Source: an uncultured Bacteroidota bacterium
Lineage (GTDB): Bacteria > Bacteroidota > Bacteroidia > Bacteroidales > UBA12077
Assembly (NCBI GenBank): GCA_913055635.1
Contig: CAJXLK010000021.1
Location: 6,686 to 70,685, forward strand
Direction of reading: 5' to 3'
Length of the DNA: 64,000 nucleotides
The notes below the pieces were generated by a model. The model did not search any database. It worked only from the letters and a program-made list of their open reading frames with translations, and was not told where the DNA came from. Position numbers and translations under genes: made by a program. This document shows, in pieces, positions 24,683 to 42,550 of the stretch; positions within the stretch are counted from its first letter, which is position 1; every line of letters starts with the position of its first letter.

Positions 24683-24886
24683 CATGAAACCCCCATACAG
24701 TAATCTATACAACAAGGACATGAATAAAGCATGGGGGTTCCATGGCAGAGGTTACCGAGACCATCGAATTATACACTATTATTATTCTGAAATACAGAGT
24801 GTTAATTGAATCTCATTTGTAGGAAACCTGCATCCAGTAACCTTCACAATAAGGACATGATTATTCCATGCAGGTTCCATAAGGCC
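24683..24886 (-). repeat. Dispersed hairpin element, copies E and F (tandem, minus orientation), between the two CpxP-like genes
   Basis: Copy E arms aacccccat/atgggggtt and copy F arms aacctgcat/atgcaggtt are both perfect. The aattaacactctgtatttca module lies between them. The block starts 2 nt after the stop at 24681. Confidence 0.8.
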
Positions 24887-24967
24887 AAAAAATTAAATAA
24901 AAAATAACCAATAACACAACAATAATTAATAAAACAAAAATCAGTTAAACCTTTAAAATCCAAAGCC

Positions 24968-25668: not shown

Positions 25669-26052
25669 TTATTCAAACAGGCCCTCATCGCGAATCAATA
25701 GCAGGATGGAATTGTGCGAGACAACGACATAACGCTCGTTATTGAAAATGATCTCATGGCCTCCCGATTGAAGGTATACGGCCAGATCCCCCTCCTGAGG
25801 CTGAAGGGGCACATATTTGACTTCATTGCGCTGCTCCTTCCACGGTTCATCCTCTTCAGATACAGCCGGTATGGGATAACCCGGCCCCACCTTTAAAACA
25901 TACCCACTGTGGGTCTTCTCCTTTTCCTGAACACTGGGGGGCAAATATAAACCCGACTTGGTCTTGCTCTGGGGATCTTTGGGCTTGATCAAAACCCGGT
26001 CCCCGATCAGTATAAAACGGCTCAGATCCTGGTCACCTATTTCCAATGCCAT
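25669..26052 (-). CDS. GroES/Cpn10-like protein with an insertion (128 aa)
   Basis: Start placed at MALEIG (26052). ILIGDRVLIKPKDPQSKTKSGLYLP...GYVLKVGPG...EGDLAVYL fits the Cpn10 beta-barrel pattern. No groEL is adjacent. Confidence 0.6.
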   Translation of the reverse strand: MALEIGDQDLSRFILIGDRVLIKPKDPQSKTKSGLYLPPSVQEKEKTHSGYVLKVGPGYPIPAVSEEDEPWKEQRNEVKYVPLQPQEGDLAVYLQSGGHEIIFNNERYVVVSHNSILLLIRDEGLFE

Positions 26053-26196
26053 AATTTTTGGTATCAAATATAGGAATTGTATTGCGCCAAAGTGAAATGC
26101 TTTGCAACAATCCCATCTATAGATGAAACCTTTTGCCCGATAATTTATTGTCCCATAGACCCGTAGAATTGAACAGGTGATCGCTCCAGCCATTTC

Positions 26197-26582
26197 TCCA
26201 AATGCGCCTTCCCATTGCCCGGGTTGAAAGCTGCAGCCGCCATAACTCGCCCGGCCAACGATAGAAAATTAAAGCCCTATCAAATGCCCTAAAAGCTTTA
26301 GACTGCATCTGCCAGGATTTGCCCGGCCAGGTATTGAAAAAACAAAACCTTATCAAATGTCCTGAAGCCTTTAGGTTGCATCTACCAGGATTTGCCGGGT
26401 CAGGTATTGAAAAAACAAAACCTTATCAAATGTCCTGAAGCCTTTAGGTTGCATCTGCCAGGATTTGCCCGGCCAGGTATTGAAAAAACAAAACCTTATC
26501 AAATGTCCTGAAGCTTTTAGGTTGCATCTACCAGGATTTGCCCGGCCAGGTATTGAAAAAACAAAACCTTATCAAATGCCAC
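26197..26582. repeat. Tandem array with an exact 73-bp period: four full copies, a degenerate 5' copy and a truncated 3' copy
   Basis: The tatcaaatg anchors fall at 26278, 26351, 26424, 26497 and 26570. The unit is tatcaaatgtcctgaagcctttaggttgcatctRccaggatttgccSggYcaggtattgaaaaaacaaaacct. Copies are contiguous with no spacers. Confidence 0.9.
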
Positions 26583-26613: not shown

Positions 26614-27981
26614 TCAGGCAGGCTGAAAAATCAAGTCAATGCTGGTTCCTTTCCCCGGGGATGAGTGAACCCGTATTTCCCCCTGGTGTTTTTTCATGAT
26701 CTGGCGGGCCAGGCTCAGGCCGATGCCGGAGCCGTTTTCCCTGGTGGTATAAAAAGGAACGAAGATTTTCTGTTGGGTCTCGGCATCCATGCCGGGGCCG
26801 TTATCGGTCACCCGCAGGCAGGGGCGCTTTTGCTGGTTGAGATCCAGGTGAAGCGATAAGCTGGGATGCTGGCAGTTGGATACGGCATCGATGGCATTGA
26901 GCAGGATGTTGATGACCACTTGCTGGATCTGGTCGAAATCGGCATATACTGTTGGGGTTTGCGGGGACATTTTGCGTTGCAGGTGAATCTTTTGCTGGCG
27001 GATTTGGTGGCTCAACAGGTGAAGCACGTGGTTAGCCAGTTCACGCAGGTCAACGGCTTCAAATTGGGGTTCGGGTAAAGAAGTGATTTTACGGTAATGG
27101 TGAACAAAACGCAACAGCCCCTGGGTTCGGGTATGGATGGTTTGCAGGCTCAGGTGCAGATCGTCCATCTCCTGATCCCACCTGGAGGGAAGCTGGTCAC
27201 GATGGCGAAGCATCTCTTCCAGTGAATCCCTGGCTGCCTGGGTAAGGGAAGAGATGGGGGTAGCGGAATTCATAATTTCGTGGCGAAGCGTACGGATCAG
27301 CATCTGCCACGATTCCACTTCACGGGCTTCCAGCTCGGAGCGGATATCCTGCAGGGAAACCAAATGAAAATGGTGGTTTTGAAGTTTAAAGGAGCTGCTT
27401 CGAAGGGCCAGGTTCAGCGTCTGATCGGCCAGGGAAAGATGAACGGCCTTTCGCTCGCCGGATTTCAGGCCTGTTAAATGCCTGTATAAATGGGGATGAT
27501 AATTCTCCAGCTCATCAAAACGGGCCAATTGGGGAATGTTAAGCATCCGGCAAACCGACTGATTGATCAGGTGGATGCTGCCGTCGGCTTTATAGGAGAT
27601 GATGCCGGTTTCAAGGTGCTCTACCACCCCGCGAAGGTGGTGGTAATGGGCTTCCTTGTCAATGCGCACATTTTGCAGTTCCCGAACGATAAGGTGAAAG
27701 GCATCATCCAGGTCGGACCGGCCGGTGGGCTCGCCGGATTGCGCTTTATAATAAGCCTGGTAATCCTGCTGCTGGATGGAAAGCAGAAAATCGCGCAATT
27801 CCCGTCGATGCCGATTCACGGCATATACCAGTCCAATGCTCAGCAAAGGAATGAGCAGGCCACTTACTGCGGTCGAAACATACCACTGATGTTGATGGAG
27901 GGCATAGGCAAAAAATAGCATATCGGCCAAAAGCAGGGCAATGCGCCAAATGATGTTCCAGGGATGGGCTTTAGAGTTCAT
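26614..27981 (-). CDS. Sensor histidine kinase (2 TM with a minimal loop, then PAS, HisKA and HATPase)
   Basis: TM1 (IIWRIALLLADMLFFAYAL), loop HQHQW, TM2 (YVSTAVSGLLIPLLSIGLVYAV). PAS-like GIISYKADGSIHLINQS, H-box LRHEIMNSATPISSL, and NILLNAIDA, DNGPGM, GSGIGLSL. It overlaps the regulator gene by 11 nt. Confidence 0.85.
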   Translation of the reverse strand: MNSKAHPWNIIWRIALLLADMLFFAYALHQHQWYVSTAVSGLLIPLLSIGLVYAVNRHRRELRDFLLSIQQQDYQAYYKAQSGEPTGRSDLDDAFHLIVRELQNVRIDKEAHYHHLRGVVEHLETGIISYKADGSIHLINQSVCRMLNIPQLARFDELENYHPHLYRHLTGLKSGERKAVHLSLADQTLNLALRSSSFKLQNHHFHLVSLQDIRSELEAREVESWQMLIRTLRHEIMNSATPISSLTQAARDSLEEMLRHRDQLPSRWDQEMDDLHLSLQTIHTRTQGLLRFVHHYRKITSLPEPQFEAVDLRELANHVLHLLSHQIRQQKIHLQRKMSPQTPTVYADFDQIQQVVINILLNAIDAVSNCQHPSLSLHLDLNQQKRPCLRVTDNGPGMDAETQQKIFVPFYTTRENGSGIGLSLARQIMKKHQGEIRVHSSPGKGTSIDLIFQPA

Positions 27982-29341
27982 GCTTGTTCATTTTGCGGTA
28001 GAGGGTGGTCCGGCCCAGGCCCAGTTCCCTGGCCGCTGCTGAAAGGTTATAATGGTGTTTTCGAAGGGCCTTGATGATGGTATTTTTTTCGATCTCCTCC
28101 AAATTGAGGCTGGAAGCACTCACCGGTTCGCCACCAGGGGCTTCCAGCTTGATATCTTTGGGCCGAATCTCTTTATTTTCACCCATGATCACCGTTCTTT
28201 CAAGGATGTGCTGCAATTCACGAATATTTCCCGGCCACTGGTACCGCTCAAGCTTTTGCAAAGCCGCAGGAGAAAGCTTGAGGTTGGGTTTGCGATACTT
28301 GCGGCGAAACGGTTCCAAAAAATGTTCGCTCAGCCGGGCAATGTCCTCAGTGCGCTCTCTTAATGGCGGAAGGGATAGTTCAACGGTGTTGATGCGGTAA
28401 AGCAAGTCTTCCCGAAAACGCCCTTCGCCAACCATCTGTTTCAGCGGCCGGTTGGTGGCACAAATCAGGCGCACATCCACCCGCACCGACTCGCCGGCAC
28501 CCACCCGTCGGATCTCGCGGCTTTGAATGGCCGTGAGCAACTTGCTCTGCAATGGCAGAGAAAGATTGCCGATCTCATCCAAAAAAAGGGTGCCCTGGTG
28601 GGCCATCTCAAAACGTCCCTTTCGGTCTTCTCGGGCATCGGTGAAGGCCCCTTTGACATGACCAAATAGTTCCGACTCGAAAAGGGTTTGCGGAACAGAC
28701 CCCAAATCCACATGCATAAATACCTGCTGCGCGCGTTGGGAACGCCGGTGAAGCGCCCGGGCCACCACTTCCTTGCCCGTGCCATTCTCCCCGAGAAGCA
28801 AGACATTGACATCCGTGCCGGCTACCTTGTTCAGGGTTTGCATCACTTCCTCCATCGCCGGCGAGGTTCCGATCACCAGCCCATGAGCCTGATCCATATC
28901 CTGTTGAAGGGTTTGCCGGGTAGAACGCAAATCACTGATCTCCTGCCTGGACTGGCCCAACCGATAGGCCGACTGGAGGGTGGCCAAAAAACGCTCATTC
29001 TCCCAGGGTTTGACCACAAAATCAATAGCTCCCAGTTTCATCGCCTCTACCGCCAAATTAACATCCCCATAAGCGGTGATCACCACAACCGGCAAATCCG
29101 GATAATGATGCTGAATGTGACCCATCCAAAGCAATCCCTCTTCCCCACTGGTGGCGCCCGGGGTGAAATTCATATCCAGCAACACCACATCAAAATCTCC
29201 AATGCTTTCCCCCTGCTCAGGTTTTCCAGGTCTCTCCCAGACTTCAACTTCCCCAAAATGTTTCTTCAATAACATTTGGGCCGTAATACGAATATCTCGG
29301 TCGTCATCAATGACAAGTATTTTTCCCTGATTCTCTCCCAT
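27971..29341 (-). CDS. Sigma-54-dependent response regulator (REC, AAA+, Fis-type HTH; NtrC family)
   Basis: ILVIDDDRDI...DVVLLDMNF (REC), LLLGENGTGKEVVARALH (Walker A), ELFGHVKGAFTDA (GAFTGA variant), TLFLDEIG (Walker B) and a C-terminal AARELGLGRTTLYRKM HTH. Confidence 0.9.
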   Translation of the reverse strand: MGENQGKILVIDDDRDIRITAQMLLKKHFGEVEVWERPGKPEQGESIGDFDVVLLDMNFTPGATSGEEGLLWMGHIQHHYPDLPVVVITAYGDVNLAVEAMKLGAIDFVVKPWENERFLATLQSAYRLGQSRQEISDLRSTRQTLQQDMDQAHGLVIGTSPAMEEVMQTLNKVAGTDVNVLLLGENGTGKEVVARALHRRSQRAQQVFMHVDLGSVPQTLFESELFGHVKGAFTDAREDRKGRFEMAHQGTLFLDEIGNLSLPLQSKLLTAIQSREIRRVGAGESVRVDVRLICATNRPLKQMVGEGRFREDLLYRINTVELSLPPLRERTEDIARLSEHFLEPFRRKYRKPNLKLSPAALQKLERYQWPGNIRELQHILERTVIMGENKEIRPKDIKLEAPGGEPVSASSLNLEEIEKNTIIKALRKHHYNLSAAARELGLGRTTLYRKMNKHEL

Positions 29342-29394
29342 GTATATAAAAAATGATTAATTTTAGGCTAAATATACAAAATGTTTCGAAATGA

Positions 29395-29408
29395 AACACC
29401 CGGGTGTT
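29395..29408. promoter_or_regulatory. Perfect 14-bp palindrome, candidate enhancer-binding-protein site
   Basis: aacacccgggtgtt, located 54 nt upstream of the regulator start and about 95 nt upstream of the sigma-54-like element. Confidence 0.3.
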
Positions 29409-29488
29409 CACCTTTGAAACAAAAAAGCCGCCAAAGGAGGGTACGGACACAATACATTATTAGTTGATTAACAATATATTATAAAGAA

Positions 29489-29504
29489 TGGCATTGAAAT
29501 TGAT
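29489..29504 (+). promoter_or_regulatory. Sigma-54-like -24/-12 element upstream of the first FtsX paralog
   Basis: TGGCATtgaaaTTGAT versus the consensus TGGCAC-N5-TTGCW. The spacing is correct, but the -12 GC reads GA. It lies about 200 nt upstream of the ATG at 29706. Confidence 0.3.
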
Positions 29505-29705
29505 TCAAGGTAAAGCAACCCTGCTTAAAGAGGTCCCTGTCAGAGCTGCTTCACCCTTATTCGATAAAAAAAGAGTGCCTTTGGGATGAAGCCCTGCAAT
29601 GAATGAGTGCCAAAATAGGGGTTGGCATGATTTTAAGGAACCGGCCAATGGTTCAAATCGCTGAGGTCGTGATACCTAAAACAAGAAACTTTTAAGATCC
29701 CCATC

Positions 29706-32081
29706 ATGATTAAGAATTACCTGAAAACCGCCATTCGAAACTTAAGAAGGAACAAGCTTCATGCTGCCATCAACATTACAGGTTTTGCCATTGGCCTTGC
29801 CGTAAGCATTTTGATCATTTTCTATGTCAGGCATGAAATGACTTACGACCAGTTCCATCCCAAAAAGGACCGGGTTTATCGCCTGGCTTTCAAAAAGATT
29901 CGGGGAGAACAAGCCAGCATCGATGCCAATTCTCTTTCCATTGCCGGTCCGGAATTCACTAAGCAATTTCCTAATATCGAGAGATTTACCCGATTAAGCA
30001 TTTATCATGGCGGCACCCTGAGCCATGAGCAAGATGCCATAAGAGAGCGGAAGATCCGCTATGCCGACTCGTCGCTTTTTAATGTGCTGGGTTTTAAGCT
30101 ATCCCGGGGCAATCCACAAACGGCCCTGGCAGGGCCTGATAAAATCGTGCTTACCCCCGGTGTTGCACGCAAGATTTTCGGTGAACAAGATCCGATGGGC
30201 AGAACCCTGACCTACAAAAACCAAAATGTACTAACGGTATCAGGCATCATGGAAGAGCCACCGGCCCGGACCCACATCAAATTTTCGGCCCTCATATCCT
30301 TTGAAACCATCCATCAAAACATGCCTGCCGGGCATTTTGGATGGAAAGGCGGATGGGCTTATTATACCTTTCTGCTGCTCCATGAAGCACGGGTTTCAGA
30401 CCAACTCATTGATAAGATGAATCAGGTGGTTTATGAAAACCTGGGAAAAGAGCTGGAAACCATAGGTTGGAAGGTCAATCCGGTTCTCCAGCCCATTGAG
30501 GAAATTTACCTCCGGCACGAGCCCATGAATGATCCCCGGTCAGCGGGAAGCCTCAGCAACATCTATGTCTTCTCGGCCATTGCAGCCTTTCTGTTGCTGA
30601 TTGCAGGCATCAACTTCATGAACCTCTCGACGGCCCAGGCCATCAAAAGAATCAAGGAAGTGGGGATCCGCAAGGTAACCGGGGCTTCCCGCAACAACCT
30701 GATCGGCCAGTTTCTGGGAGAATCCCTGATGATCACTTTCATCTCCTTCATCCTGGCCCTGATCCTGATTGAAATCACCCTGCCCGGGTTCAACAACCTG
30801 CTGGGCACAAAGCTTTCCCTCTATTCCACACATAATCGGGCCATTTTAATTGGCCTGCCCCTTTTGGTATTCCTGGTGGGGATCGCCTCAGGAAGTTATC
30901 CGGCTTTCTTCCTCTCCTCGCATCAGCCCGAGACAGTAATGAAAGGATCTGTCAACAACAGGAAACAAAAACTTTCCCTTAGCAATTTTCTCATTATCAC
31001 CCAGTTCGTAATTTCCATTGCACTGATCATCGGATCATTGGTGATTTACCATCAATTGCATTACATGGATCATAAAAAGCTGGGGTATCAAAAGGAAAAC
31101 CTGATGGCCATTCATCTCTCCAGCAAGAAAACTGCAGAGAAGGATGAGCTGGTCAAGAAAGAATTGCTCCGCGTCAACGGGATAAAAAACGTGAGCCTGG
31201 CATCCCATTACCCGGGAATGGGAGCAGGCCGTACCGGGCACATCCCTGAGGGACATGAAGCACCTCAGATGTTCCATGTGTTGTCTGTGGATTCAGACTA
31301 CATTCAAACCGCCGGCCTGGAGGTGATCAGGGGAAGAAATTTTGAGGCCTCGCGCAAGGCCGATCAAAATGCCTGTCTGATCAATGAAACGCTGGCCCGT
31401 CAAATGAAATGGGAAAATCCCATTGGAAAGACCCTTCACCGAAACACCGACTACACCGTGATTGGAGTGGTAAAGGACCATCATTTTGCCTGCCTCCACG
31501 AGAAGATCCAACCCCTGATCTACAAACGCCAGCGTCCATGGTGGGGGGAAATGGCACTGGTTAAAATGGACGGTGCCCATCCGCGCCAAACCCTTTCTTC
31601 TGTTCAGCAGACCTGGAGCAACCTGTTCGGCAGTGAACCCCTCCAATATGAATTTGTCGATCAGGCCTTTCGGCAAATCTACCGGATGGACATTCGCTTC
31701 GGGGAAATCATCCTGGCCTTCACCGTCCTGGCCATCTTTATTGCCTGCCTGGGCTTGTTCGGTCTGACCCACTTCTTCACCGTTCAAAGAACCAAGGAGA
31801 TTGGTATTCGGAAAGCGATGGGGGCTTCAGCCTTCAGCATCAACCGCTACATCATCGCCAAATTTACCCGTTGGGTGTTGATCGCCAACTTCATCGCCTG
31901 GCCCCTGGCCTTTTACGCCATGAATCAGTGGCTCCAGGAGTTCGCCTACCGGATCAACCTCCACCCCGTCTACTTTATTCTCGGGGCTGCCCTTTCAATG
32001 GCCATTGCCATCTCCACGGTAAGCTACCAGGCCATCAAATCGGCCAACATCAACCCGGCGGAAAGCCTTAGGTATGAGTGA
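29706..32081 (+). CDS. FtsX/MacB-type ABC transporter permease (duplicated FtsX domains, no ATPase domain), paralog 1
   Basis: 791 aa. N-terminus MIKNYLKTAIRNLRRNKLHAAINITGFAIGLA, a large extracytoplasmic segment, FtsX-like blocks (EVGIRKVTGASRNNLIGQFLGES, EIGIRKAMGAS) and the C-terminal tail INPAESLRYE. Confidence 0.9.
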   Translation: MIKNYLKTAIRNLRRNKLHAAINITGFAIGLAVSILIIFYVRHEMTYDQFHPKKDRVYRLAFKKIRGEQASIDANSLSIAGPEFTKQFPNIERFTRLSIYHGGTLSHEQDAIRERKIRYADSSLFNVLGFKLSRGNPQTALAGPDKIVLTPGVARKIFGEQDPMGRTLTYKNQNVLTVSGIMEEPPARTHIKFSALISFETIHQNMPAGHFGWKGGWAYYTFLLLHEARVSDQLIDKMNQVVYENLGKELETIGWKVNPVLQPIEEIYLRHEPMNDPRSAGSLSNIYVFSAIAAFLLLIAGINFMNLSTAQAIKRIKEVGIRKVTGASRNNLIGQFLGESLMITFISFILALILIEITLPGFNNLLGTKLSLYSTHNRAILIGLPLLVFLVGIASGSYPAFFLSSHQPETVMKGSVNNRKQKLSLSNFLIITQFVISIALIIGSLVIYHQLHYMDHKKLGYQKENLMAIHLSSKKTAEKDELVKKELLRVNGIKNVSLASHYPGMGAGRTGHIPEGHEAPQMFHVLSVDSDYIQTAGLEVIRGRNFEASRKADQNACLINETLARQMKWENPIGKTLHRNTDYTVIGVVKDHHFACLHEKIQPLIYKRQRPWWGEMALVKMDGAHPRQTLSSVQQTWSNLFGSEPLQYEFVDQAFRQIYRMDIRFGEIILAFTVLAIFIACLGLFGLTHFFTVQRTKEIGIRKAMGASAFSINRYIIAKFTRWVLIANFIAWPLAFYAMNQWLQEFAYRINLHPVYFILGAALSMAIAISTVSYQAIKSANINPAESLRYE

Positions 32082-32140
32082 GTGAAGAAGTGATTGCCTG
32101 CCCCGACCTAGTAAAACGAAGACGGGGGGTGAAGAAGTGA
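32082..32140 (+). repeat. Conserved 3' module following paralog 1
   Basis: gtgaagaagtgattgcctgccccgacctagtaaaacgaagacggggggtgaagaagtga, with core tgcctgccccgac-N-aaacgaag-cgggg. Confidence 0.7.
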
Positions 32141-32168
32141 TACCCAAAAAAATATAACTGAATCTGCT

Positions 32169-34529
32169 ATGTTTCGCAATTACCTTAAAACAGGGCTCAG
32201 ACATCTTAAAAGAAACCGGGTATATTCCCTGCTGAACCTGATGGGCCTTGCCATAGGACTCACCATCAGCATCATCATTATGCTGTTTGTATTGAATGAA
32301 ATGAGCTATGATCGCTTTCATACCCATTCTGACAACATCTACCGGCTGGGCATCAGGCAGGAACGATCCCATTCCCTCAATCGCAGTGCCATCACATCCC
32401 CGGCCATGGGAAAGGACCTGGTCTCGAATATTCCTGAAATCACAGACCAGGTGCTGTTGAAACCCTACCGGCAGGCAACCCTTCTGAAAGATGAAAAGAA
32501 ATATTCCACCGATGAAGTGCTCTTTGCCGGGGACTCGTTCTTTCAAATCTTCTCGTTTAAATTGCTGGTGGGCAACAAAAAGCAGGTATTAAAAAACCCC
32601 AATTCTATTGTAATAACCCGTCAACTGGCCCGAAAGATATTTGGTGACCGGGATCCCCTGGGAAAAAGCCTGCTGGTGCATAATAAATTTGAGGTAACCG
32701 TAACGGGCATAGCCGAAGCACCCCCCTCCCATTCCCACATTGATTTTGATGCCGTGGTTTCTTTCTCAACATTGAATCAAATCATAGATTTTTACCGAGG
32801 ATGGGACGGCAACTTTAGCTACTATACCTATTTGCTGTTTGAAGACGGAAAGGCTCCCGGGGATACAGAGGGAGCCATTTTGGACCTTTTCAACCGGAAG
32901 GTCAATGAAAAAATGGAAAATTGGCGATATGAACCCCTTTTCGAGCCCCTGGAAGAGATATATCTGCACTCAGACCTGCTCTATGATTTCAGCCGGACCG
33001 GAAGCATGAGAACCATATATGTATTCTCAGGTATTGCTTTTCTGATCCTTCTGATAGCCACCATCAATTTTGTCAATCTGTCCACGGCCCTTTCCCTGAA
33101 TCGTGTCAGGGAGGTGGGACTGAGAAAAGTGAATGGGGCATCCAAAAAAAGGATTGTCCAGCAGTTTCTGGGCGAATCGATGCTGATGAGCATACTGGCA
33201 TTAATCCTGGCCATGATACTGATCGAAATAACCCTGCCCTGGTTCAACCTGTTTTTCCAAAAACAGCTAAGCGTGTATCAATCTTCCAACTGGCCCTTGC
33301 TTGTAGGCATTCCCTTTTTGGTTGTTTTCATTGGAATCATAGCCGGTAGTTATCCATCCTTCTATGTGGCCCGGATACGGCCGGCAGTCAGCATCAAAGA
33401 CCAAATATCTTCCAAAATGCCGAATCTGAGCATGCAGAATGCCCTGGTGCTGGTTCAGTTCATCATTTCCGCCGGACTGATCATCAGCAGCCTGGTCATT
33501 TATGCTCAACTCTCTTACATGGGAGATAAAGATTTGGGTTTTGATAAAAACAACCTGGTCGCTCTACGGCTCGACAATAAAAACTGCGTTAGGAAAAGTC
33601 ATTTGCTCAGGGAGCAGTTCAACCGGCACCCCCATATTCAGTATACATCAGTTGCTTCGGATTACCCGGTAAACGGCATGACTCAAAATGGCTATGCCCC
33701 GGAAGGCCTGGATAAGCTCATCTCCATCCATGCCCTCTATGTGGATCCCCATTACCTGGAAACCCTGGGTATGAAACTTGCACAAGGCAAAAACTTTGAC
33801 CAACGCACCCCGGATACCAGCCACATTCTGATCAATCAAGCACTTGCCAGCAACATGAATTGGAAAAATCCCCTGGATAAGACCATCTCGCGGAATGGTG
33901 TTGATTATCAGGTGATCGGGGTGGTTGAGGATTTTCATTATGAAAGCCTCCATAAACCAATAGGTCCGGTTCTTTTTACTTTAAAACCCAGGAAACAAGT
34001 AATTCTGACCAGAATTTCCAAAAACCATTTCAAGGAAGCCACGAGTTACATAAAAAAAACATGGGAAGATATTACTGGGGATTATTTTCTGGGATATACC
34101 CGGATCAGCAAAGCATACAAGCGAATGCACCAAAGCGAAAGCCGTTTTGCAGAGAAAGTTCTGTTTTTCACCATCCTGGCCATATTCCTTGCTTGTCTTG
34201 GTCTGTTCGGACTTACCGCCATCTACACCACACGGCGAACAAAGGAAATGGGCATCAGAAAGGCATTGGGAGCAAACGCCTTATCTGTGAACTGGTTGAT
34301 GTTGAGACAATACACCCGATGGGTGGTATTAGCGAATATTGTGGCCTGGCCGCTTGCTTTCTATCTGATGCGGCAATGGCTGGAGAATTTTGCCTACCGG
34401 ATTGACCTGAATTTTTGGTTCTTCCTGGCGGGTGGCATGGTTACCCTGGTGATATCAATGCTTACCCTTACATGGTTTGCCGCCAGATTATCAAGAATCA
34501 ACCCGGCATGGTGCCTGAGGAATGAGTGA
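32169..34529 (+). CDS. FtsX/MacB-type ABC transporter permease, paralog 2
   Basis: 786 aa. MFRNYLKTGLRHLKRNRVYSLLNLMGLAIGL, EVGLRKVNGASKKRIVQQFLGES, EMGIRKALGAN. Confidence 0.9.
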   Translation: MFRNYLKTGLRHLKRNRVYSLLNLMGLAIGLTISIIIMLFVLNEMSYDRFHTHSDNIYRLGIRQERSHSLNRSAITSPAMGKDLVSNIPEITDQVLLKPYRQATLLKDEKKYSTDEVLFAGDSFFQIFSFKLLVGNKKQVLKNPNSIVITRQLARKIFGDRDPLGKSLLVHNKFEVTVTGIAEAPPSHSHIDFDAVVSFSTLNQIIDFYRGWDGNFSYYTYLLFEDGKAPGDTEGAILDLFNRKVNEKMENWRYEPLFEPLEEIYLHSDLLYDFSRTGSMRTIYVFSGIAFLILLIATINFVNLSTALSLNRVREVGLRKVNGASKKRIVQQFLGESMLMSILALILAMILIEITLPWFNLFFQKQLSVYQSSNWPLLVGIPFLVVFIGIIAGSYPSFYVARIRPAVSIKDQISSKMPNLSMQNALVLVQFIISAGLIISSLVIYAQLSYMGDKDLGFDKNNLVALRLDNKNCVRKSHLLREQFNRHPHIQYTSVASDYPVNGMTQNGYAPEGLDKLISIHALYVDPHYLETLGMKLAQGKNFDQRTPDTSHILINQALASNMNWKNPLDKTISRNGVDYQVIGVVEDFHYESLHKPIGPVLFTLKPRKQVILTRISKNHFKEATSYIKKTWEDITGDYFLGYTRISKAYKRMHQSESRFAEKVLFFTILAIFLACLGLFGLTAIYTTRRTKEMGIRKALGANALSVNWLMLRQYTRWVVLANIVAWPLAFYLMRQWLENFAYRIDLNFWFFLAGGMVTLVISMLTLTWFAARLSRINPAWCLRNE

Positions 34530-34626
34530 ATGCCTGTGCCGCTGAAACGAAGACGGGGAGTGAAGAAGTGATTGCCTGCCCCGACGTAGTAAAACGAAGA
34601 CGGGGGGTGAAGAAGTGAATGCCTGA
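34527..34626 (+). repeat. Conserved 3' module following paralog 2 (two core copies)
   Basis: tgcctgtgccgctgaaacgaagacggggagtgaagaagtgattgcctgccccgacgtagtaaaacgaagacggggggtgaagaagtgaatgcctg. Confidence 0.7.
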
Positions 34627-34693
34627 CAAATGGAAGCAACCAATAGAAACCGGACTGTGAATCACTTTGATATAACCATAAAACTGAAGCTCA

Positions 34694-37078
34694 ATGTTAA
34701 AGAACTATCTGAAAACCGGAATTCGAAACCTCAAGCGATATAAATTCTTTACCGCCATTAATATCGTGGGTTTCTCGGTTGGCCTGGCTACCTGTTTCAT
34801 CATCTTCCTGTTTATTGATCATGAAACAAGCTTTGACCACCACCTATCAAAAGCAGACAATCTCTACCGGATTGTAGTCAAGGAGACTCATCCCCACGGC
34901 ACCCGCTACCATGAAAGTGTTCCCTATCCCCTGGCGGAAGCAATCAGCGGGGAATTGCTCAATCCCGGCCAGGTTGTTACCACCTATTATGATGCCAAAC
35001 AAATAAAGGTCAACGATCAGTTGTTTTTGGAAGAGGGGCTGGTTTATACCGATTCGGTCTTTTGCCAGCTGTTCGATGTGAAATTTGTCCAGGGCCAGGC
35101 TGCGGCACTGGAAGAACCAGGCAATGTAGTGTTGACCCGGCAACTGGCCGGAAAATATTTTGGCATGACCGATCCGATGGGTAAAGAACTCATCATCAGC
35201 CGTGAGTTAAACCTGACAGTTAAAGGCATAGTGGAAGATCCCCCGGAAAACACCCACCTTCCCTACCGGATGCTGATATCTGCCGGCTCGCTCGATGACG
35301 GCCACATCCAATTTGACTATGACAAGTGGGGTTCCAACATTTCCCGCATCGCTTCTTATGTGCATCTGAACAAGGGAGAGGAATTAAAAACCATTGAAGA
35401 AGAGATCAATAAAATATACCGCCGGCACAGGGAGGATAATCTCGCCCAACAAAATGATTTTTTTCTGCTGCCGGTCAAAGATATCCATACAGATGGGCGG
35501 TTCGACGATTATCCGGGCAGCTATGTGACCAGCAGCAAGCTGATCTGGGTTTTTATTTTTATAGGTGTGATCGTGTTGGCCGTGGCCCTGATCAATTTCA
35601 TCAATCTTTCCATTGTTCAGGGCATCCGCAGAAGCAAGGAAGTTGGCCTGCGCAAAGTGGCGGGGGCTACCAGAAGCAAGCTGGTGCTGCAGTTTCTGGG
35701 TGAAACCTTTGTCATTGTCAGCATATCGGTGATCCTGGCTTTTATACTTACTGAGATGCTTCTTCCCCTGATCAACACCTATACCGGCGAACGGATCCAT
35801 TTATCCCTCTATGGAAAGCCTGACATCTTCGTCTTCATAGTGATTTTAATGGCAGGGGTCAGCCTGCTGGGAGGTGCTTTCCCGGCCCTCTTTCTGTCGG
35901 CTTACCGCCCTATAGAGGCCATTCGCAAAAAGATGCTGAACCAGCGCAAAAAAACCCTCCCTGTTCAGCGGGTGTTGGTGGTGGTTCAATTCTTTATCGC
36001 TCAGGCCCTTGTCATCTTCGTCATTGCCATTGATCAGCAGGTGGATTATATGACAAACAAAGAGCTGGGCTTCAATCAGAACAACCTGATGGTGGCCCCC
36101 CTGCCCCACTCAACACCGCATAAACAAGCCACTTTCAGAAATCAGCTCAGGGAAATACCTGGTGTATCAAAGGTTTCTTTGGCCATGGGTGAACCTTTGA
36201 GCATCAGCAACAACGTATCCAACTATCAACTCCATGGAGAGCAGGAAGACCACTTTGCCAACATGAAAGCCGTCGATCCTTATTATTTGGACACCTATGG
36301 CATCCGGCTCAAATATGGAAGGGGGTTCCGCCCCTCCCCGAATGGTCAGACAATGAGCAGTGTGCTTGTCAACGAAAAGATGACCCGCGACATTGGTTGC
36401 CCGCACCCACGGGATGCCCTGGGCCAGTTCATCCGGCTTTTCGGCGAAAAACGCCAAATCATCGGGGTCATCGAAAATTTTCATGTCTATTCGTTGCATC
36501 GCGAGCTCTTTCCCCTGATCCTCCACCACAATCCCGACCTCTTTGCCCGGGCCGGCATCAGGCTGGAAGAAGGCGCCTACCGGGAAGCGGCCCCGAAGAT
36601 CCAAAAGGTATACAGAAAGACCTTCCCCAACAGCCTTTATCGCCAGTACCTCTATAAGGATTTGCTCAAAGACCAGTATAAGGGAGAAGAACTGTTTTTC
36701 GGACAGCTGCAAATCTTCACCATTATTGCCATCATCCTGGCATCCATGGGCCTGATCGGACTGGTTTCTTTCATGATGGTACAAAGGACCCAGGAAGTAG
36801 GCATACGAAAAAGCCTGGGGGCGCTTCCCGGGGGTATCGTTTACATGTACACCCGCCGCTTTGCCGGTTTGGTGCTTATCTCCAGTGTCCTCGCCTGGCC
36901 CCTGGCCTACCTGATACTGCAACAGTGGCTGCAAAATTATGCCTATCATATCCCTTTGAGCATCATATACTTCGCCATGGGCTTCTTGTTGATATTGACC
37001 GTCTCGCTGGCTTCAATCCTCTATAATACCCTGAAAGTAGCCCGCATCAATCCGGCCCGGTCGCTGAGGGATGAATGA
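34694..37078 (+). CDS. FtsX/MacB-type ABC transporter permease, paralog 3
   Basis: 794 aa. MLKNYLKTGIRNLKRYKFFTAINIVGFSVGLA, EVGLRKVAGATRSKLVLQFLGET, EVGIRKSLGAL, tail INPARSLRDE. Confidence 0.9.
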   Translation: MLKNYLKTGIRNLKRYKFFTAINIVGFSVGLATCFIIFLFIDHETSFDHHLSKADNLYRIVVKETHPHGTRYHESVPYPLAEAISGELLNPGQVVTTYYDAKQIKVNDQLFLEEGLVYTDSVFCQLFDVKFVQGQAAALEEPGNVVLTRQLAGKYFGMTDPMGKELIISRELNLTVKGIVEDPPENTHLPYRMLISAGSLDDGHIQFDYDKWGSNISRIASYVHLNKGEELKTIEEEINKIYRRHREDNLAQQNDFFLLPVKDIHTDGRFDDYPGSYVTSSKLIWVFIFIGVIVLAVALINFINLSIVQGIRRSKEVGLRKVAGATRSKLVLQFLGETFVIVSISVILAFILTEMLLPLINTYTGERIHLSLYGKPDIFVFIVILMAGVSLLGGAFPALFLSAYRPIEAIRKKMLNQRKKTLPVQRVLVVVQFFIAQALVIFVIAIDQQVDYMTNKELGFNQNNLMVAPLPHSTPHKQATFRNQLREIPGVSKVSLAMGEPLSISNNVSNYQLHGEQEDHFANMKAVDPYYLDTYGIRLKYGRGFRPSPNGQTMSSVLVNEKMTRDIGCPHPRDALGQFIRLFGEKRQIIGVIENFHVYSLHRELFPLILHHNPDLFARAGIRLEEGAYREAAPKIQKVYRKTFPNSLYRQYLYKDLLKDQYKGEELFFGQLQIFTIIAIILASMGLIGLVSFMMVQRTQEVGIRKSLGALPGGIVYMYTRRFAGLVLISSVLAWPLAYLILQQWLQNYAYHIPLSIIYFAMGFLLILTVSLASILYNTLKVARINPARSLRDE

Positions 37079-37215
37079 GGAAATGATTGAATGCCTGCCC
37101 CGACGCAGTGAAACCAAGGCGGGGAGTGAAGAAGTAATTAAGTGATTGAGTAACTAAGTCAAGAAGTGATTGCCGGCCCTGCTGAAATGAAGTGAAAGCG
37201 GGTGTTGAATGAAGA
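37079..37215 (+). repeat. Conserved 3' module following paralog 3 (one good core plus one degenerate core)
   Basis: aaatgattgaatgcctgccccgacgcagtgaaaccaaggcggggagtgaagaagt...gtgattgccggccctgctgaaatgaagtgaaagcggg. Confidence 0.65.
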
Positions 37216-37371
37216 AATGCGTGAAGAGACAACATGAATTAATAAATGAAGTATTGTTGGAGCCTTTAAATGGGCATCATGGAAAAGGAATACCGCGAGA
37301 ATGCAACAGCGCTCCAAAAACCACGATAAAAAAACCTGACATTTGACAAATTAACCTGTAACCCAACAGCC

Positions 37372-39762
37372 ATGTTACGCAACTATTTTTTTACCGCCCT
37401 GCGGGTCATCAAACGCAACAAAAGCTTCTCGCTGATCAATATCCTGGGTTTTTCAACGGGTTTGATCAGCTGCCTGGTGATATTCCTGTTCGTAAAGCAC
37501 GAATTGAGCTTTGAAAAACATATACCCGATTATCAGCGGATTTACCGCGTTGCCAACGTCAGCCACGAAAGTGAAGGCCCGGTCAAAGAAGCCTCCATTC
37601 CTTATCCCCTGGGACAAGTTATAGGGGAGGAGTTAACCGGCCATGCAACGGTTGCCCCGATATTTTACGCCCATGAGCCATCGCTGAAACACGAAAACAA
37701 GATGTTTAAGGAACATGGGGTGGTCTTCGCCAATGAAGCGTTCATGGATATATTCGGGGTGAGGGTCCAATCAGGCAACCCCCGTTCATTGAATGAACCC
37801 GGAAACACTTTCATCTCACGTAAACTTGCCCGCAAATTTTTTGGCAAGAAAGATCCCGTGGGTAAAACCATCACCATTGAGCAGAATCTGACGGTAAAAA
37901 TTGCCGGGGTGATGGAGGCTTCTACCCGGCGCACCCATCTGCCTTACAAAATGCTGGTTTCCATGGAATCATTGAACCGCCAGATTGTGGGCCTGGATTA
38001 TGAGACCTGGGGATCGAAAATATCGGGAATGAGTGCTTATATTAAGCTGAAACCTACCACCGACCAGGCAAACTATGAAAAACAACTGAAAGCGCTCGTT
38101 GCGGAAAATGCTACAGACCAGGACCTTCATAAAACCAGTTACTTTTTGCAGCCTCTTTCCCAGATTCATCTCGATCCATCCATTTCATCCTTTTTGGGAT
38201 CTTATACCACCAGCAAAAAGTTCATCTGGATCTTTATTTCCGTGGGCCTGTTCATCCTGATCATTGCCGGCATCAATTTCATCAACCTTTCTACGGTACA
38301 GGCGATCAAAAGGACCCGGGAGATTGGGGTTCGCAAGGTCCTGGGGGCCGACCGGCTCAAGATCATCCGGCAATTCTTCATGGAAACCCTGCTGTTGCTT
38401 CTGGCCGCCGAGGTCGTTGCCCTGATCCTGGCCGAGGTGATCCTGCCCCGGGTAAGTACCCTGTTGGGCAGCCACATCGATCTGAACTTATACAGTGATC
38501 TTTCGGTAGGGGTCTTCATGTTGTCGATTTTGATCGGATTTGGTCTGATTGCAGGGCTCTATCCGGCCCTTTTCCTGTCACGTTATAACCCCCTGCAGGC
38601 CATGCGATCCAAGACCGGCCGGAGCGAGAAAAAGCAACTGCCCGTCTTTGGCACCCTGGTGGTATTGCAGTTTTTTATTTCCCAGATCCTGATCATTTCT
38701 TCGCTCATCGTCGGTCAGCAAATCGATTTCTTCAAAAATAAAGATTTGGGATTTGACCAAGACAATGTCCTGTTGATCAATCTCTACGGACAGGATAAGA
38801 GCCACCAGGGAGCCTTTAAGCAAGAACTGCTCCAGATCCCGGAGGTGAAAAAAGTTGCCTTTGGTCTGGGCGCTCCCCTTTCCAACTCCAGAATCCGCTC
38901 CAATGCTTATGTTCCGGGTAAGAAAGAACAACAATACAGCATCAATGTAAAAACCACCGATGCCTCTTATCCGGAGTTCTATGACATCAATCTGTTGGCT
39001 GGCCAAATGTTCAATGAGCAGTCCGCCGGAGATACGATTCAAAGTATCGTAATCAATCAAAAGTTGATGGATGATTTGGGGTATGAAGCGCCCCACAATG
39101 CTTTGGGCAAACAGTTACGTTGCTTTGGCGGGACCAGCGAAATTGTCGGTGTCATGGAAAATTTTCATTCCGAGTCGCTTCACGGCACCATGTCGGCAAC
39201 TGTGCTGACATACATGCCGGAATGGTTCATCCAGGCCTCGGTCAAACTCACCCCGGGCCACAACCGGCAAAGCCTGAATAAAATAGAAGCCGTCTGGGAA
39301 AAAGTCTATCCGCAGCAAGTCTTCGATTACGCCTTTCTGGAAGATGAAATCCTGGAAGATTATCGGGATGAAGAACGTACCTCAAAGATCGTGCGGATCT
39401 TCACCCTGGTAGCGATCATCATCGCCATTCTGGGCCTCTATGGGATGGTATCGTTCATGTTGGTTCACCGCACCCAGGAGATCGGCATCCGCAAAACCCA
39501 GGGAGCCTCGACCAGCCGTATTATAAGACAATTATCAGGCAATTACCTGAAATACATTTTAATTGCAGGTCTTTTGGCCTGGCCGGTGGCCTGGTACCTG
39601 ATGGAACAGTGGTTGCAGGATTTTGCCTATCACATCAACCTGCATATCGGATATTTTGTAGCCTCCACCCTCTTGTTGCTTTTGATCAGTCTTGGGAGTA
39701 TCCTTCAGCAAACGATCAAAACAGCCCATATCAATCCGGCCCAATCCCTCAGGTCGGAGTAG
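37372..39762 (+). CDS. FtsX/MacB-type ABC transporter permease, paralog 4
   Basis: 796 aa. MLRNYFFTALRVIKRNKSFSLINILGFSTGL, EIGVRKVLGADRLKIIRQFFMET, EIGIRKTQGAS, tail INPAQSLRSE. Confidence 0.9.
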   Translation: MLRNYFFTALRVIKRNKSFSLINILGFSTGLISCLVIFLFVKHELSFEKHIPDYQRIYRVANVSHESEGPVKEASIPYPLGQVIGEELTGHATVAPIFYAHEPSLKHENKMFKEHGVVFANEAFMDIFGVRVQSGNPRSLNEPGNTFISRKLARKFFGKKDPVGKTITIEQNLTVKIAGVMEASTRRTHLPYKMLVSMESLNRQIVGLDYETWGSKISGMSAYIKLKPTTDQANYEKQLKALVAENATDQDLHKTSYFLQPLSQIHLDPSISSFLGSYTTSKKFIWIFISVGLFILIIAGINFINLSTVQAIKRTREIGVRKVLGADRLKIIRQFFMETLLLLLAAEVVALILAEVILPRVSTLLGSHIDLNLYSDLSVGVFMLSILIGFGLIAGLYPALFLSRYNPLQAMRSKTGRSEKKQLPVFGTLVVLQFFISQILIISSLIVGQQIDFFKNKDLGFDQDNVLLINLYGQDKSHQGAFKQELLQIPEVKKVAFGLGAPLSNSRIRSNAYVPGKKEQQYSINVKTTDASYPEFYDINLLAGQMFNEQSAGDTIQSIVINQKLMDDLGYEAPHNALGKQLRCFGGTSEIVGVMENFHSESLHGTMSATVLTYMPEWFIQASVKLTPGHNRQSLNKIEAVWEKVYPQQVFDYAFLEDEILEDYRDEERTSKIVRIFTLVAIIIAILGLYGMVSFMLVHRTQEIGIRKTQGASTSRIIRQLSGNYLKYILIAGLLAWPVAWYLMEQWLQDFAYHINLHIGYFVASTLLLLLISLGSILQQTIKTAHINPAQSLRSE

Positions 39763-39780
39763 AGAGGTGAAGAAATGATT

Positions 39781-39850
39781 AAATGATCAAATGATTGAAT
39801 GCCTGCCCCGACGAAGTGAAACGAAGGCGGGAAGAGAATGGATGAGGAAA
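39781..39850 (+). repeat. Conserved 3' module following paralog 4
   Basis: aaatgatcaaatgattgaatgcctgccccgacgaagtgaaacgaaggcgggaagagaatggatgaggaaa. It matches 42481-42550 with 2 mismatches in 70. Confidence 0.85.
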
Positions 39851-39932
39851 TGATTGAATGAGAGAATGATTAATGCGTGAATACGTAAATAAAAAAGAGG
39901 GGTCTGTGGGCTGAAGCATTGAATTAAATTTT

Positions 39933-39949
39933 TGGCATCCGGTTTTGAT
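39933..39949 (+). promoter_or_regulatory. Second sigma-54-like element, upstream of paralog 5
   Basis: TGGCATccggttTTGAT has the same half-sites as 29489-29504 but an N6 spacer instead of N5. It lies about 120 nt upstream of the ATG at 40066. Confidence 0.2.
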
Positions 39950-40065
39950 CAATTTTTCCATTTGGTTGTTAACTGTAATGATTCTTTTCAGGTGACGGTA
40001 CCTGTAAAAAGATGAAATTTTCAGGGTCTTTAGGAAGAAACCTCTAAAGAGTGGGGGATGTTGGG

Positions 40066-42477
40066 ATGCTGCGCAACTATCTGAGAGCGGGATGGCAAAT
40101 TTTTTCCAAAAACAAGGGTTTTACCATCATCAACACCCTTGGCTTTGCCCTGGCATTGGCAGTGGTCCTGTTGATCTTTCTCTACATCCGGTATGAAAAA
40201 AGTTTCGAGCAGCATTTGCCCCATCGGGATCAGATACACCGGATCATTGTCCAAGGCATGGATGTCCGTGGCATGAGCTACCACCCGGCTACGCCCAACT
40301 CCCTCGGCAAGGCCTTAAGCAAACAACTGCCCGGCAATTCACAAGTAGCCAGTGTACTGGTCAGCAAAAACAAGACCCTCCAGGCAAATGGCAGGTCTTT
40401 GATGGTGGAGCAGATGATGCTGTTCGTTGATTCAGGCTTCTGCGAACTTTTTAATGTGCGCATCCTGCGGGGGGATCCGGCCAGTTTAAACCAGGCTCAC
40501 ACAGCTTTTATCACCCCGAAACTGGCCCGTCAATTTTTCAAACATCAAGATCCGATGGGCCGGGAACTGGTTTTGGCCAACAACCTTCATCTCACGGTAA
40601 AAGGGCTCATCGAGGCGCCTCCCCCTGCCACCCATCTGCCCTACCAAATCCTGATCTCTGCCCATTCCCTTTCCAACGATTATAGTCGGGTGAAGTATAA
40701 CCCCTGGGCACTGGCCCGTGACTATACGGCAACCTATATCCGTTTGGATTCGCCTCAGCAAAAGGAAAGCACTGAGCAGACAATCAACCGCATCGGCCAA
40801 TCTTTCTTCCGTGAAAAGCAAATCAAGCTGCTACTTCAACCCATTGATGAAATTCACCTGGATGACCGGCTAAGCCGCCTCACCTGGCATTATACCAACA
40901 GCCAAGGAACCATCGGAATATTCACCACCATTTCCCTTATGATTCTGATCATTGCCGGCATCAATTTTGTCAATCTGTCGGTGGTCCAGGCCATAAGACG
41001 GACACGGGAGATTGGTATGCGCAAAATAGTTGGGGCCTCCAACGCAAGGCTTATCAGACAGCTTCTGACCGAAACCTTCTTTATTTTAGCCGCCGCTGTT
41101 GCCCTGGCCATGCTGTTTGTTGAACTCTCCCTTCCCCTGATCAATAAAAAAATGGAGCCGCTGATCCATCTGGATTTTCACATTGATCGGACCAATCTTC
41201 TTTACCTTGCTGCTGTTCTGGTCCTATTGGTCCTTTTGGCAGGCCTGTTTCATTTGTCGTATATTTCAAAATATAAGCCCCTGGAAGCCCTGCGGAAAAA
41301 TTTCTATGTACGAACTGCAAAAAAACGGCCTTCCCGCTTCAAAGTACTGGTTATTTTTCAATTTATGATCACCCAGGTTCTGCTGATTGGTTTTTTGGTG
41401 ATCAACAGTCAGTTGCAATACCTTCACAGTAAAGACCTGGGGTTTGAAACAGAAAATGTGATACTGGTCAGGTTACCTGGCCAGGATACCCTTCAGCGAA
41501 CAGCCTTCAAAAAGCGCCTCGAACAACATCAGGCCGTAGATCGGGTGTCCGTCTCTTCCGAGCTGCCAATGGATCCTTCTGGTGTAGCATTTTACTCCAT
41601 TCAATCTCCCATTAACGGCCAATTTTATGAGGTCTGCATCAAGGTGGTCGACCGCTATTTCACCGAATTATTTGACGTTCAAATGAAAAACGGCAGATGG
41701 TTCCCCCTTGAACAGAACAATTCCTTAGATCAGAGCATTGTTGTTAACGAAACCTTCATCGCAACTTTTGGTTTTTCTTCACCCGAATCCGCGATCCATC
41801 AAAGCATTGAAATAGAGGGCAACCAGTACAGGATTATTGGCGTTGCCAGGGATTTTCATGTTTTCTCCCTGCACCGGGAGTTGCAACCGACCATTCTCTT
41901 TCACCATCAACAGGCCAGGGTACAGGAGCAGTCCAAACCCATTGACCATATAAGCATCAAGCTGAATCAACCCGATCCCCGCAAATGGCTTCCCTTTATC
42001 CGGCAGAGTTATGGCTGTCATTTACCGGAGGAACCTTTTGTTTACCAGATCTACGAAGATGAAGTGTATCGTCAATACCAGCAGGAAGACCGGAGTTTTA
42101 TGATCCTGGGAACTTTTACGATTATAGCCATCATTCTGGCATCGATGGGTCTGTTTGGACTGGTCTCATTCGTTATGGCACAAAAAACAAGAGAAACAGG
42201 AATCAGAAAGGCCAATGGGGCCACCGGGCAAAGCATCATCGCCATGTATCTTTTCAGATATCTCAAAATCACGGTGATAGGAAGTTTATTGGCCTGGCCC
42301 TTCGCCTATTTTTTTATGCATCAGTGGCTGACCAATTATGCTTACCATGCAGATTTATCCCTCCGGCATTTTCTGATGGGCCTGCTGATCCTCCTGGGGG
42401 TGGCACTTTTTTCCATCCTCTTTCAGACCATTCGCACGGCCAATACCAACCCGGCCGCCTCGCTCAGGGAAGACTAA
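40066..42477 (+). CDS. FtsX/MacB-type ABC transporter permease, paralog 5
   Basis: Start placed at MLRNYLRAGWQIFSKNK (40066), by analogy with the MxxNY starts of the other four paralogs. EIGMRKIVGASNARLIRQLLTET, ETGIRKANGAT, tail TNPAASLRED. Confidence 0.88.
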   Translation: MLRNYLRAGWQIFSKNKGFTIINTLGFALALAVVLLIFLYIRYEKSFEQHLPHRDQIHRIIVQGMDVRGMSYHPATPNSLGKALSKQLPGNSQVASVLVSKNKTLQANGRSLMVEQMMLFVDSGFCELFNVRILRGDPASLNQAHTAFITPKLARQFFKHQDPMGRELVLANNLHLTVKGLIEAPPPATHLPYQILISAHSLSNDYSRVKYNPWALARDYTATYIRLDSPQQKESTEQTINRIGQSFFREKQIKLLLQPIDEIHLDDRLSRLTWHYTNSQGTIGIFTTISLMILIIAGINFVNLSVVQAIRRTREIGMRKIVGASNARLIRQLLTETFFILAAAVALAMLFVELSLPLINKKMEPLIHLDFHIDRTNLLYLAAVLVLLVLLAGLFHLSYISKYKPLEALRKNFYVRTAKKRPSRFKVLVIFQFMITQVLLIGFLVINSQLQYLHSKDLGFETENVILVRLPGQDTLQRTAFKKRLEQHQAVDRVSVSSELPMDPSGVAFYSIQSPINGQFYEVCIKVVDRYFTELFDVQMKNGRWFPLEQNNSLDQSIVVNETFIATFGFSSPESAIHQSIEIEGNQYRIIGVARDFHVFSLHRELQPTILFHHQQARVQEQSKPIDHISIKLNQPDPRKWLPFIRQSYGCHLPEEPFVYQIYEDEVYRQYQQEDRSFMILGTFTIIAIILASMGLFGLVSFVMAQKTRETGIRKANGATGQSIIAMYLFRYLKITVIGSLLAWPFAYFFMHQWLTNYAYHADLSLRHFLMGLLILLGVALFSILFQTIRTANTNPAASLRED

Positions 42478-42480: not shown

Positions 42481-42550
42481 AAATGATTAAATGATTGAAT
42501 GCCTGCCCCGACGAAGTGAAACGAAGGCGGGAAGAGAATGGATGAGAAAA
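42481..42550 (+). repeat. Conserved 3' module following paralog 5
   Basis: Near-identical to 39781-39850, exactly 2700 bp away. Confidence 0.85.

Follow-up and report, generated by a model that had tools for sequence, protein, structure and literature searches.

Organization of the locus

The locus described here is a two-component regulatory switch that is divergent from an array of five tandem permease genes (Table 1). It lies in a 64,000-nt stretch of DNA, referred to as the window (G000:C21:6686-70685), on the 74-kb contig C21 of the genome of an uncultured UBA12077 bacterium of the Bacteroidota (GCA_913055635.1); the genome is 4.08 Mb in size and 99% complete. A first-pass annotation made from the sequence had described a kinase and a sigma-54 activator transcribed divergently from five tandem permeases, and indeed all seven open reading frames (ORFs) were found where it had placed them. 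The activator gene and the first permease gene are separated by 364 nt. The kinase and activator genes overlap by 11 nt and therefore probably form a single operon. No match to PF00005 (ABC ATPase) was found on the entire 74-kb contig C21, window included, which extends to the contig the earlier observation that the window lacks an ABC ATPase. Beyond the 3' end of the kinase gene, a 73-bp tandem array (26271-26578; 4.2 copies, 93% matches) separates it from a 174-aa Cpn10/GroES-like gene (25669-26193). The ORFs farther out on that side (22820-25477) include one for a Metal_resist/LTXXQ (CpxP/Spy-like) protein at 24968-25477.

Table 1. Features of the switch and permease locus. Positions are numbered from the first base of the window.
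Feature	Position	Strand	Description
Sensor histidine kinase	26614..27981	-	455 aa
NtrC-family sigma-54 activator (response regulator)	27971..29341	-	456 aa
Candidate enhancer	29382..29421	none	40-bp inverted repeat; putative function
Candidate sigma-54 -24/-12 promoter TGGCATTGAAATTGAT	29489..29504	+	Motif class enriched before double-FtsX genes; putative function
Permease paralog 1	29706..32081	+	791 aa; MacB_PCD+FtsX twice; 8-TM double MacB-type
Permease paralog 2	32169..34529	+	786 aa; 41% identical to its sister, paralog 1
Permease paralog 3	34694..37078	+	794 aa; clade with paralogs 4 and 5
Permease paralog 4	37372..39762	+	796 aa
Permease paralog 5	40066..42477	+	~803 aa from ATG 40066; ORF opens at GTG 40051 (808 aa)

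The permease array

The array consists, as first annotated (786-804 aa), of five same-strand double-FtsX genes, here measured at 786 to ~803 aa. Each of the five products gave two MacB_PCD (PF12704) and two FtsX (PF02687) matches above cut-off. The plan read from hydropathy is transmembrane segment 1 (TM1), a periplasmic domain of ~245 aa, TM2-4, TM5, a second periplasmic domain of ~220 aa and TM6-8; seven of these segments were detected by hydropathy and the eighth is presumed. All five proteins begin M-x-(K/R)-N-Y, as had been noted. The C-terminal motif NPAxSLRxE, described as equally shared, deviates in paralog 2 (INPAWCLRNE).

The five paralogs are 30-41% identical (~40% within clades and ~30% between them), and their tree resolves two well-supported clades, (P1,P2) and (P3,P4,P5). 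Given these identities and this branching, the duplications appear to be local and old, in keeping with the impression formed by eye. The best solved relatives of the permeases by sequence were the MacB structures 5LIL and 5GKO, and solely MacB-type chains were found. Each permease also aligned with TIGR03434 (ADOP) from end to end (5-803 of 803), with scores of 266-311 bits against a cut-off of 622.3; the window permeases are thus relatives that stand outside the curated ADOP family. Permeases encoded by complete operons elsewhere are the sister groups of the two window clades in the tree. The tree interleaves the permeases that stand first and second in such operons, and the proposal that they represent two ancient obligatory subunit types was therefore rejected.

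Conservation was compared over the 27 double permeases of the host genome. Scores were 0.56-0.63 for the N-terminus, the TM2-TM3 coupling loop and the C-terminus, all cytoplasmic, and 0.40-0.41 for the periplasmic domains. The conserved cytoplasmic segments would fit shared docking on a common ATPase, and are also the usual pattern of transporters.

A REP-like hairpin follows each permease gene (32082-32141, 34530-34626, 37085-37140, 39795-39850 and 42492-42550). The repeat reads TGCCTGCCCCG ... CGGGG and is flanked by GTGAAGAAGTGA words. With weak folds (z-scores -0.1 to -1.6) and no T tract, these hairpins are not obvious terminators. Specificity of the repeat to the permease family was tested and rejected, since it is dispersed in 57 genome copies, of which these five alone lie beside double-FtsX genes.

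Architecture and family of the sensor kinase

Hydropathy analysis of the kinase N-terminus identified two hydrophobic helices joined by QHQW. In the AlphaFold2 model (mean pLDDT 86, built on 55 homologues), a helix at residues 7-29 (TM1) is followed by a turn (30-33), a helix (34-70), a loop and a further helix (87-122). The first-pass annotation had given the spacer between the two TM helices as five residues (HQHQW); the minimal turn was upheld, and its length was measured as four residues (QHQW, 30-33). Among ~110 homologues the N-terminus reads FRxxxxxR, TM1, a turn of 3-7 residues, TM2 and then RYVExTNR, and no outside domain was inserted between the TM helices in any part of these alignments. 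Because the homologues share this loop-less N-terminus, the absence of a periplasmic sensor is a family trait. Neither hydropathy nor the model revealed a periplasmic sensor domain and, together with the homologues, they agree with the earlier statement that the kinase leaves no room for one.

The C-terminal half of the model comprises a PAS-like sheet domain (126-212), DHp (214-300) and CA (308-451), and a HAMP-like sequence pattern (~57-122) was read by eye after TM2 in the homologue alignment. The kinase is therefore not sensor-less, with HAMP-like and PAS-like parts preceding DHp/CA. No catalytic box is broken, and none varies within the family (H234 in DHp, N358, N362, D393/G395/G397 and G417/G419/G421). 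Fold matches included the WalK model 9A5D, YF1 (4GCZ) and VicK (4I5S), and the nearest solved chains by sequence were ZraS and NtrB. BceS (8G3A_D) ranked 50th in the fold search, with an aligned length of 248 columns, as would suit the DHp/CA part. On these matches, the protein is a ZraS/NtrB/WalK-like kinase in which the PAS-like domain offers another possible input. At E<=1e-30 the family was present in 88 of 301 sampled Bacteroidota genomes, and a pattern scan recovered 593 relatives, among them some from metagenome-assembled genomes (MAGs) labelled Ignavibacteria, Latescibacterota, Zixibacteria, Kryptoniota and Acidobacteriota.

The activator and its candidate promoter

The activator contains REC (D55), Sigma54_activat (AAA+), AAA_lid_14 and HTH_8 domains, and rpoN is present in the host genome. 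The receiver, the AAA+ sigma-54 interaction domain and the helix-turn-helix, together with rpoN, place the regulator in the NtrC family. Its sigma-54 contact loop (residues 231-236) reads GAFTDA, compared with the canonical GAFTGA; this form was shared by 84 of the 105 family members and by 8 of the 11 activators of the host genome.

A candidate sigma-54 promoter, TGGCAT-N5-TTGA, with correctly spaced GG-N10-GA, is located 202 nt 5' of the first permease ATG. An inverted repeat, composed of a perfect TGTTTC-N5-GAAACA and an imperfect second copy, lies ~70-105 nt upstream of its -24 element. Matches to the canonical TGGCAC-N5-TTGC were no commoner in the window than expected by chance. The GA variant at -12 came to light when the sequences 5' of the 27 double-FtsX genes were compared, as a recurrent TGGCAY-N5-TTGA(T). 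Genome-wide, TGGCAY-N5-TTGA had 14 intergenic matches, 12 of them with a downstream gene, and this gene encoded a double-FtsX protein in 6 of the 12 (binomial p ~2e-10, with 27 double-FtsX genes among ~3500 genes as background). With a slightly relaxed motif, 8 of 26 matches preceded double-FtsX genes (binomial p ~2e-11, same background). In related loci, the motif with at most one mismatch was found facing the transporter in 17 of 56 cases and in the opposite orientation in 2 of 56. Among the sister loci of the host genome introduced below, the exact pattern is present in C21, C3 and C15b, and a promoter-like site was recognized by eye in C18b and C1, where it reads GG-N10-GA in C1. An upstream palindrome is clear in C21, C15b and C18b and differs in sequence between loci. 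The sigma-54 output proposed in the first-pass annotation is consistent with these motifs, in that a sigma-54-type promoter motif and an upstream palindrome face the permease array.

Many candidate sigma-54 promoters in the host genome carry GA or GT instead of GC at -12, which may be linked to the GAFTDA loop. Two further sigma-54-like sites were seen in the window: TGGCATCCGGTTTTGA (39933-39948), with a spacer one nt too long, ~118 nt 5' of permease 5, and TGGCATATCATTTGAC (9451-9466; C21:16136), 304 nt upstream of an ORF at 9770-10768. A scan for sigma-70 promoters and intrinsic terminators, which is ill-suited to Bacteroidota promoters, gave no excess over shuffled sequence.

Linkage of the switch to pump genes in related genomes

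A set of 120 loci was fetched by kinase similarity alone and their neighbours were tagged by BLAST against the proteins of the host genome. Eighty-nine kinase/activator pairs had 3 kb or more of upstream sequence and could be evaluated for linkage. In 63 of these (71%), the three nearest divergent genes included one for an adaptor, an ATPase or an FtsX protein, compared with a rough background of ~5% or less estimated from gene counts in the host genome. The linkage is given as a proportion, without a p-value, because related genomes are not independent. These counts bear out the phylogenomic association of the two-component system with FtsX-type permeases, and the divergent arrangement of switch and transporter is conserved across several phyla. 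In the commonest order, the kinase and activator genes point away from an operon encoding an HlyD adaptor, an ATPase and one or two double permeases.

At eight loci (L005, L008, L087, L088, L102, L107, L116 and L120; positions ~3000-9900), the switch family stands beside a different conserved set of genes, of ~115, 690, 255 and 270 aa, and no pump genes. The genomes with this alternative set are mostly labelled as Cyclobacteriaceae genera (Lunatimonas, Mongoliibacter, Algoriphagus and Belliella).

Motor and permease modules of the host genome

The host genome encodes six closely related switches, with activators ~50% identical. Four of them, C21 (the window), C3, C15b and C18b, are divergent from permeases only. 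The C1 switch is divergent from a 418-aa adaptor (HlyD_3/HlyD_D23), a 227-aa ATPase and a DUF2807 protein, with no permease. At C10, a second ATPase and a further DUF2807 protein are encoded after one permease. The two ATPases, C1:16795 and C10:35572 (type A), are 81% identical to each other and 81-87% identical to those encoded by complete operons elsewhere; a third, type-B ATPase, C65:11401, groups with the "second ATPase" of some operons. The sole orthologous adaptor in the genome is C1:15341. The search for a cognate ATPase suggested in the first-pass annotation thus produced three orthologues, for which a partnership in trans is proposed. The matching adaptor and ATPases are all on contigs other than C21 and, since the switch in relatives adjoins adaptor-ATPase-permease operons, this distribution explains why an ATPase is missing locally.

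The division into motor and permease modules was also reflected in kinase phylogeny. In a tree of 108 kinases, the window kinase fell in a clade (support 0.84-0.88) with eight of the nine permease-only modules (hypergeometric p ~7e-8, uncorrected for kinship). Four of these eight belong to the host genome and two to genome G135, and a Roseivirga MAG and a Cyclobacteriaceae MAG contribute one each. The C1 kinase fell in a separate, motor-only clade composed mostly of Bacteroidales MAGs. Gene placement repeats this pattern: G135 combines one motor-only module with two of the permease-only kind, and its single orthologous adaptor, like the adaptors of the Roseivirga genome, is confined to one distant locus, ~5 Mb from the permease-only module in the case of Roseivirga. 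The split, as judged from these clades and gene placements, therefore appears to be conserved and no local accident.

Both type-A ATPase genes are followed by a gene for a secreted or lipoprotein-like DUF2807 (GIN-domain) protein (C1:17547-18269 and C10:36289-36990), which may serve the motor module as an accessory part. A kinase of 434 aa, again loop-less and more distantly related, and a sigma-54 activator share an operon (C18:48302-55643) with genes for an adaptor, an ATPase and two permeases of the single-FtsX kind, the same logic on a different pump type.

Co-diversification of the kinase with its neighbours

Pairwise distance matrices were compared over 33 complete modules (Spearman rho, Mantel test). 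Kinase distances tracked those of the activator (rho 0.88; nearest neighbour shared in 28 of 33 modules), the ATPase (rho 0.54; 22 of 33) and the adaptor (rho 0.44; 23 of 33). Those of the permeases were uncorrelated with the kinase (rho -0.02 and 0.01; Mantel p 0.56 and 0.42), with a shared nearest neighbour in 7-9 of 33; permease distances are near saturation, and the test has power only in their shallow part. Because the kinase follows the activator, ATPase and adaptor and not the permeases, the conserved core consists of switch, adaptor and ATPase, and the permeases turn over. Co-evolving kinase-permease pairs have been described for Bce modules, and the lack of correlation disfavors a pair of that type here.

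Proposed mechanism

The locus is probably a permease-only module under sigma-54 control, part of a modular MacB-type (type VII ABC) envelope pump whose ATPase and adaptor are supplied from other loci. The phosphorylated activator would bind the palindrome and open the sigma-54 promoter, and transcription would cover at least paralog 1 and probably genes beyond it. Each 8-TM permease would act as a built-in pseudo-dimer; its conserved cytoplasmic segments (the N-terminus, the coupling loops and the C-terminus) would receive two copies of an ATPase encoded in trans. Together with the single adaptor and a TolC-like duct, the permease would expel substrates chosen by its variable periplasmic domains.

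Several observations weigh against this explanation. The -12 element of the candidate promoter is GA and not the canonical GC, no recognizable sigma-54 site was found upstream of paralogs 2-5, and the weak hairpin after every permease gene clouds the extent of co-transcription. Pairing with pump genes is not universal, as other neighbours were found at 26 of the 89 related switches (29%). Although 13 OEP-family (TolC-like) proteins are encoded in the genome, none is adjacent to these loci. The promoter and enhancer roles are putative, and the use of ATPase and adaptor in trans is deduced from gene counts and orthology.

With no domain in the periplasm, the kinase must receive its signal either within the membrane, relayed from the TM hairpin to HAMP, or from the cytoplasm by way of PAS. 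Autonomous sensing of the membrane or cytoplasm is tentatively suggested as the input. A kinase that reads the working pump through its conserved parts is possible and somewhat doubtful, even when this includes the case of Bce-like, paralog-specific contact; the absence of kinase-permease co-diversification may still be compatible with such a read-out. A further and rather unlikely extension is a combinatorial pump, in which motor modules (adaptor and ATPase) and modules of interchangeable double-MacB permeases would each have a loop-less sigma-54 switch of their own. The cell could then fit one motor with different permeases as required, and the switches would respond to the state of the pump or membrane and not to a ligand in the periplasm.

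Alternative explanations

The first-pass annotation had proposed a Bacteroidota analogue of the Bce systems, a permease-coupled sensing module. In a Bce-like mechanism, the loop-less kinase would form a membrane complex with the adjacent permease and be activated by its transport cycle, the variable periplasmic domains of the permease serving as the actual sensors. The loop-less kinase and the tight genomic linkage to FtsX-type pumps stand. The ~110 homologues without an outside domain and with HAMP directly after TM2 imply a signal from the membrane helices, and a second loop-less kinase/activator pair occurs within the FtsX pump operon C18:48302-55643. The six sister kinases would also need distinct inputs, and the permease domains are the sole hypervariable, outside-facing parts encoded nearby. 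Nevertheless, flux sensing of this kind is considered unlikely. Kinase and permeases did not co-diversify (rho ~0, and 7-9 of 33 nearest neighbours shared compared with 22-28 for the other components), and motor-only modules retain the same kinase type without a neighbouring permease. The PAS domain is an alternative input, the regulator is NtrC-type, the permeases are MacB-type, and no homology to BceS or BceB was seen beyond generic DHp/CA and FtsX.

Two other explanations dispense with the motor or with the regulation. The five permeases could work as true orphans without any ABC ATPase, for example as ATP-independent scaffolds or receptors acting through their periplasmic domains. This would account for the lack of an ATPase on contig C21 and for the 25 of 27 double-permease paralogs that have no ATPase gene nearby, and ADOP-like families are likewise multi-copy (10-33) in Bacteroidota. 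It is nonetheless very improbable, given that orthologous permeases elsewhere reside in adaptor-ATPase-permease operons, that conservation across the 27 paralogs is highest in the cytoplasmic segments (the N-terminus, the coupling loops and the C-terminus), and that the host genome encodes highly conserved orthologous ATPases. The least probable explanation is adjacency without control, in which the two-component system would regulate other genes and the array would be expressed from one or more unrelated promoters of its own. The non-canonical -12 element, the lack of a recognizable site before paralogs 2-5 and the switches with other neighbours would fit this explanation. Conservation of the divergent arrangement across several phyla argues against it, as do the enrichment of the motif toward the transporter and, genome-wide, before double-FtsX genes, and the finding, at three or more paralogous loci, of upstream palindromes with sequences distinct from one another.

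Significance

Few paralogous membrane-protein families of soil and marine Bacteroidota, Acidobacteriota and their neighbours are as large as the double MacB/ADOP-type permeases, whose function and energy source are still given as unassigned. The locus and its relatives supply handles on this family: a conserved sigma-54 switch with a kinase free of any outside domain, a candidate promoter and enhancer, and named candidate trans motors and an adaptor. An "orphan permease" family thereby gains a testable mechanism. If motor and permease modules are indeed separately switched, this would be a new way of organizing an efflux system, and the split would widen substrate range without duplicating whole pumps. 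Were the combinatorial pump also true, Bce-like logic would have arisen independently in the FCB group and Acidobacteriota, and the "orphan permease" puzzle of ADOP would be explained.

Comparison with known systems

No paper was found on the sigma-54 switch, the loop-less kinase or split pump modules, and a Flavobacterium psychrophilum transcriptome paper held nothing relevant to the module. The closest described arrangement is MacRS-MacABCsm of Stenotrophomonas maltophilia, in which a two-component system is divergent from a MacAB-type tripartite pump operon (PMC10295115). The likeness to MacRS-MacABCsm seen here is one of divergent gene order.

The acidobacterial duplicated orphan permease (ADOP, TIGR03434) is named for a duplicated permease without an ATPase. 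The window permeases have the same duplicated architecture, and both are large paralogous families without adjacent ATPase genes. Unlike ADOP, the window permeases score below the family cut-off (266-311 bits compared with 622), are paired with a sigma-54 two-component switch and can be tied to orthologous motors. Multi-copy ADOP-like genes (10-33 copies), with function listed as unknown, have been described in Psychroflexus torquis and Dyadobacter (PMC3914696, PMC11573002).

With BceRS-BceAB of Firmicutes (BceAB-S, 8G3A) the locus shares a two-TM kinase with a minimal loop, HAMP after TM2 and linkage to an FtsX-type ABC transporter. Unlike BceS, the window kinase has a PAS-like domain and ZraS/NtrB/WalK-like relatives; the regulator is NtrC-type, whereas BceR is OmpR-type; and the permeases have 8 TM segments and two MacB domains, in contrast to the 10 TM segments and one large extracellular domain of BceB. 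Sequence and fold searches found no homology to BceS or BceB other than the generic domains named above, and the module does not appear to belong to the Bce family.

The pump genes themselves most resemble MacAB-TolC (MacB, 5LIL and 5GKO; Spr0694-0695, 5XU1). The FtsX 4-TM unit and the MacB periplasmic core domain are common to both, and in relatives an HlyD/MacA-type adaptor and a small MacB/LolD-type ATPase are encoded in the same operon. The fused or adjacent ABC ATPase of MacAB-type systems is not found at the window locus. Unlike MacAB-TolC, two MacB units are here fused in a single 8-TM chain, the ATPase is a separate protein encoded on another contig, up to 27 permease paralogs per genome are present for one adaptor, and control is of the sigma-54 type.

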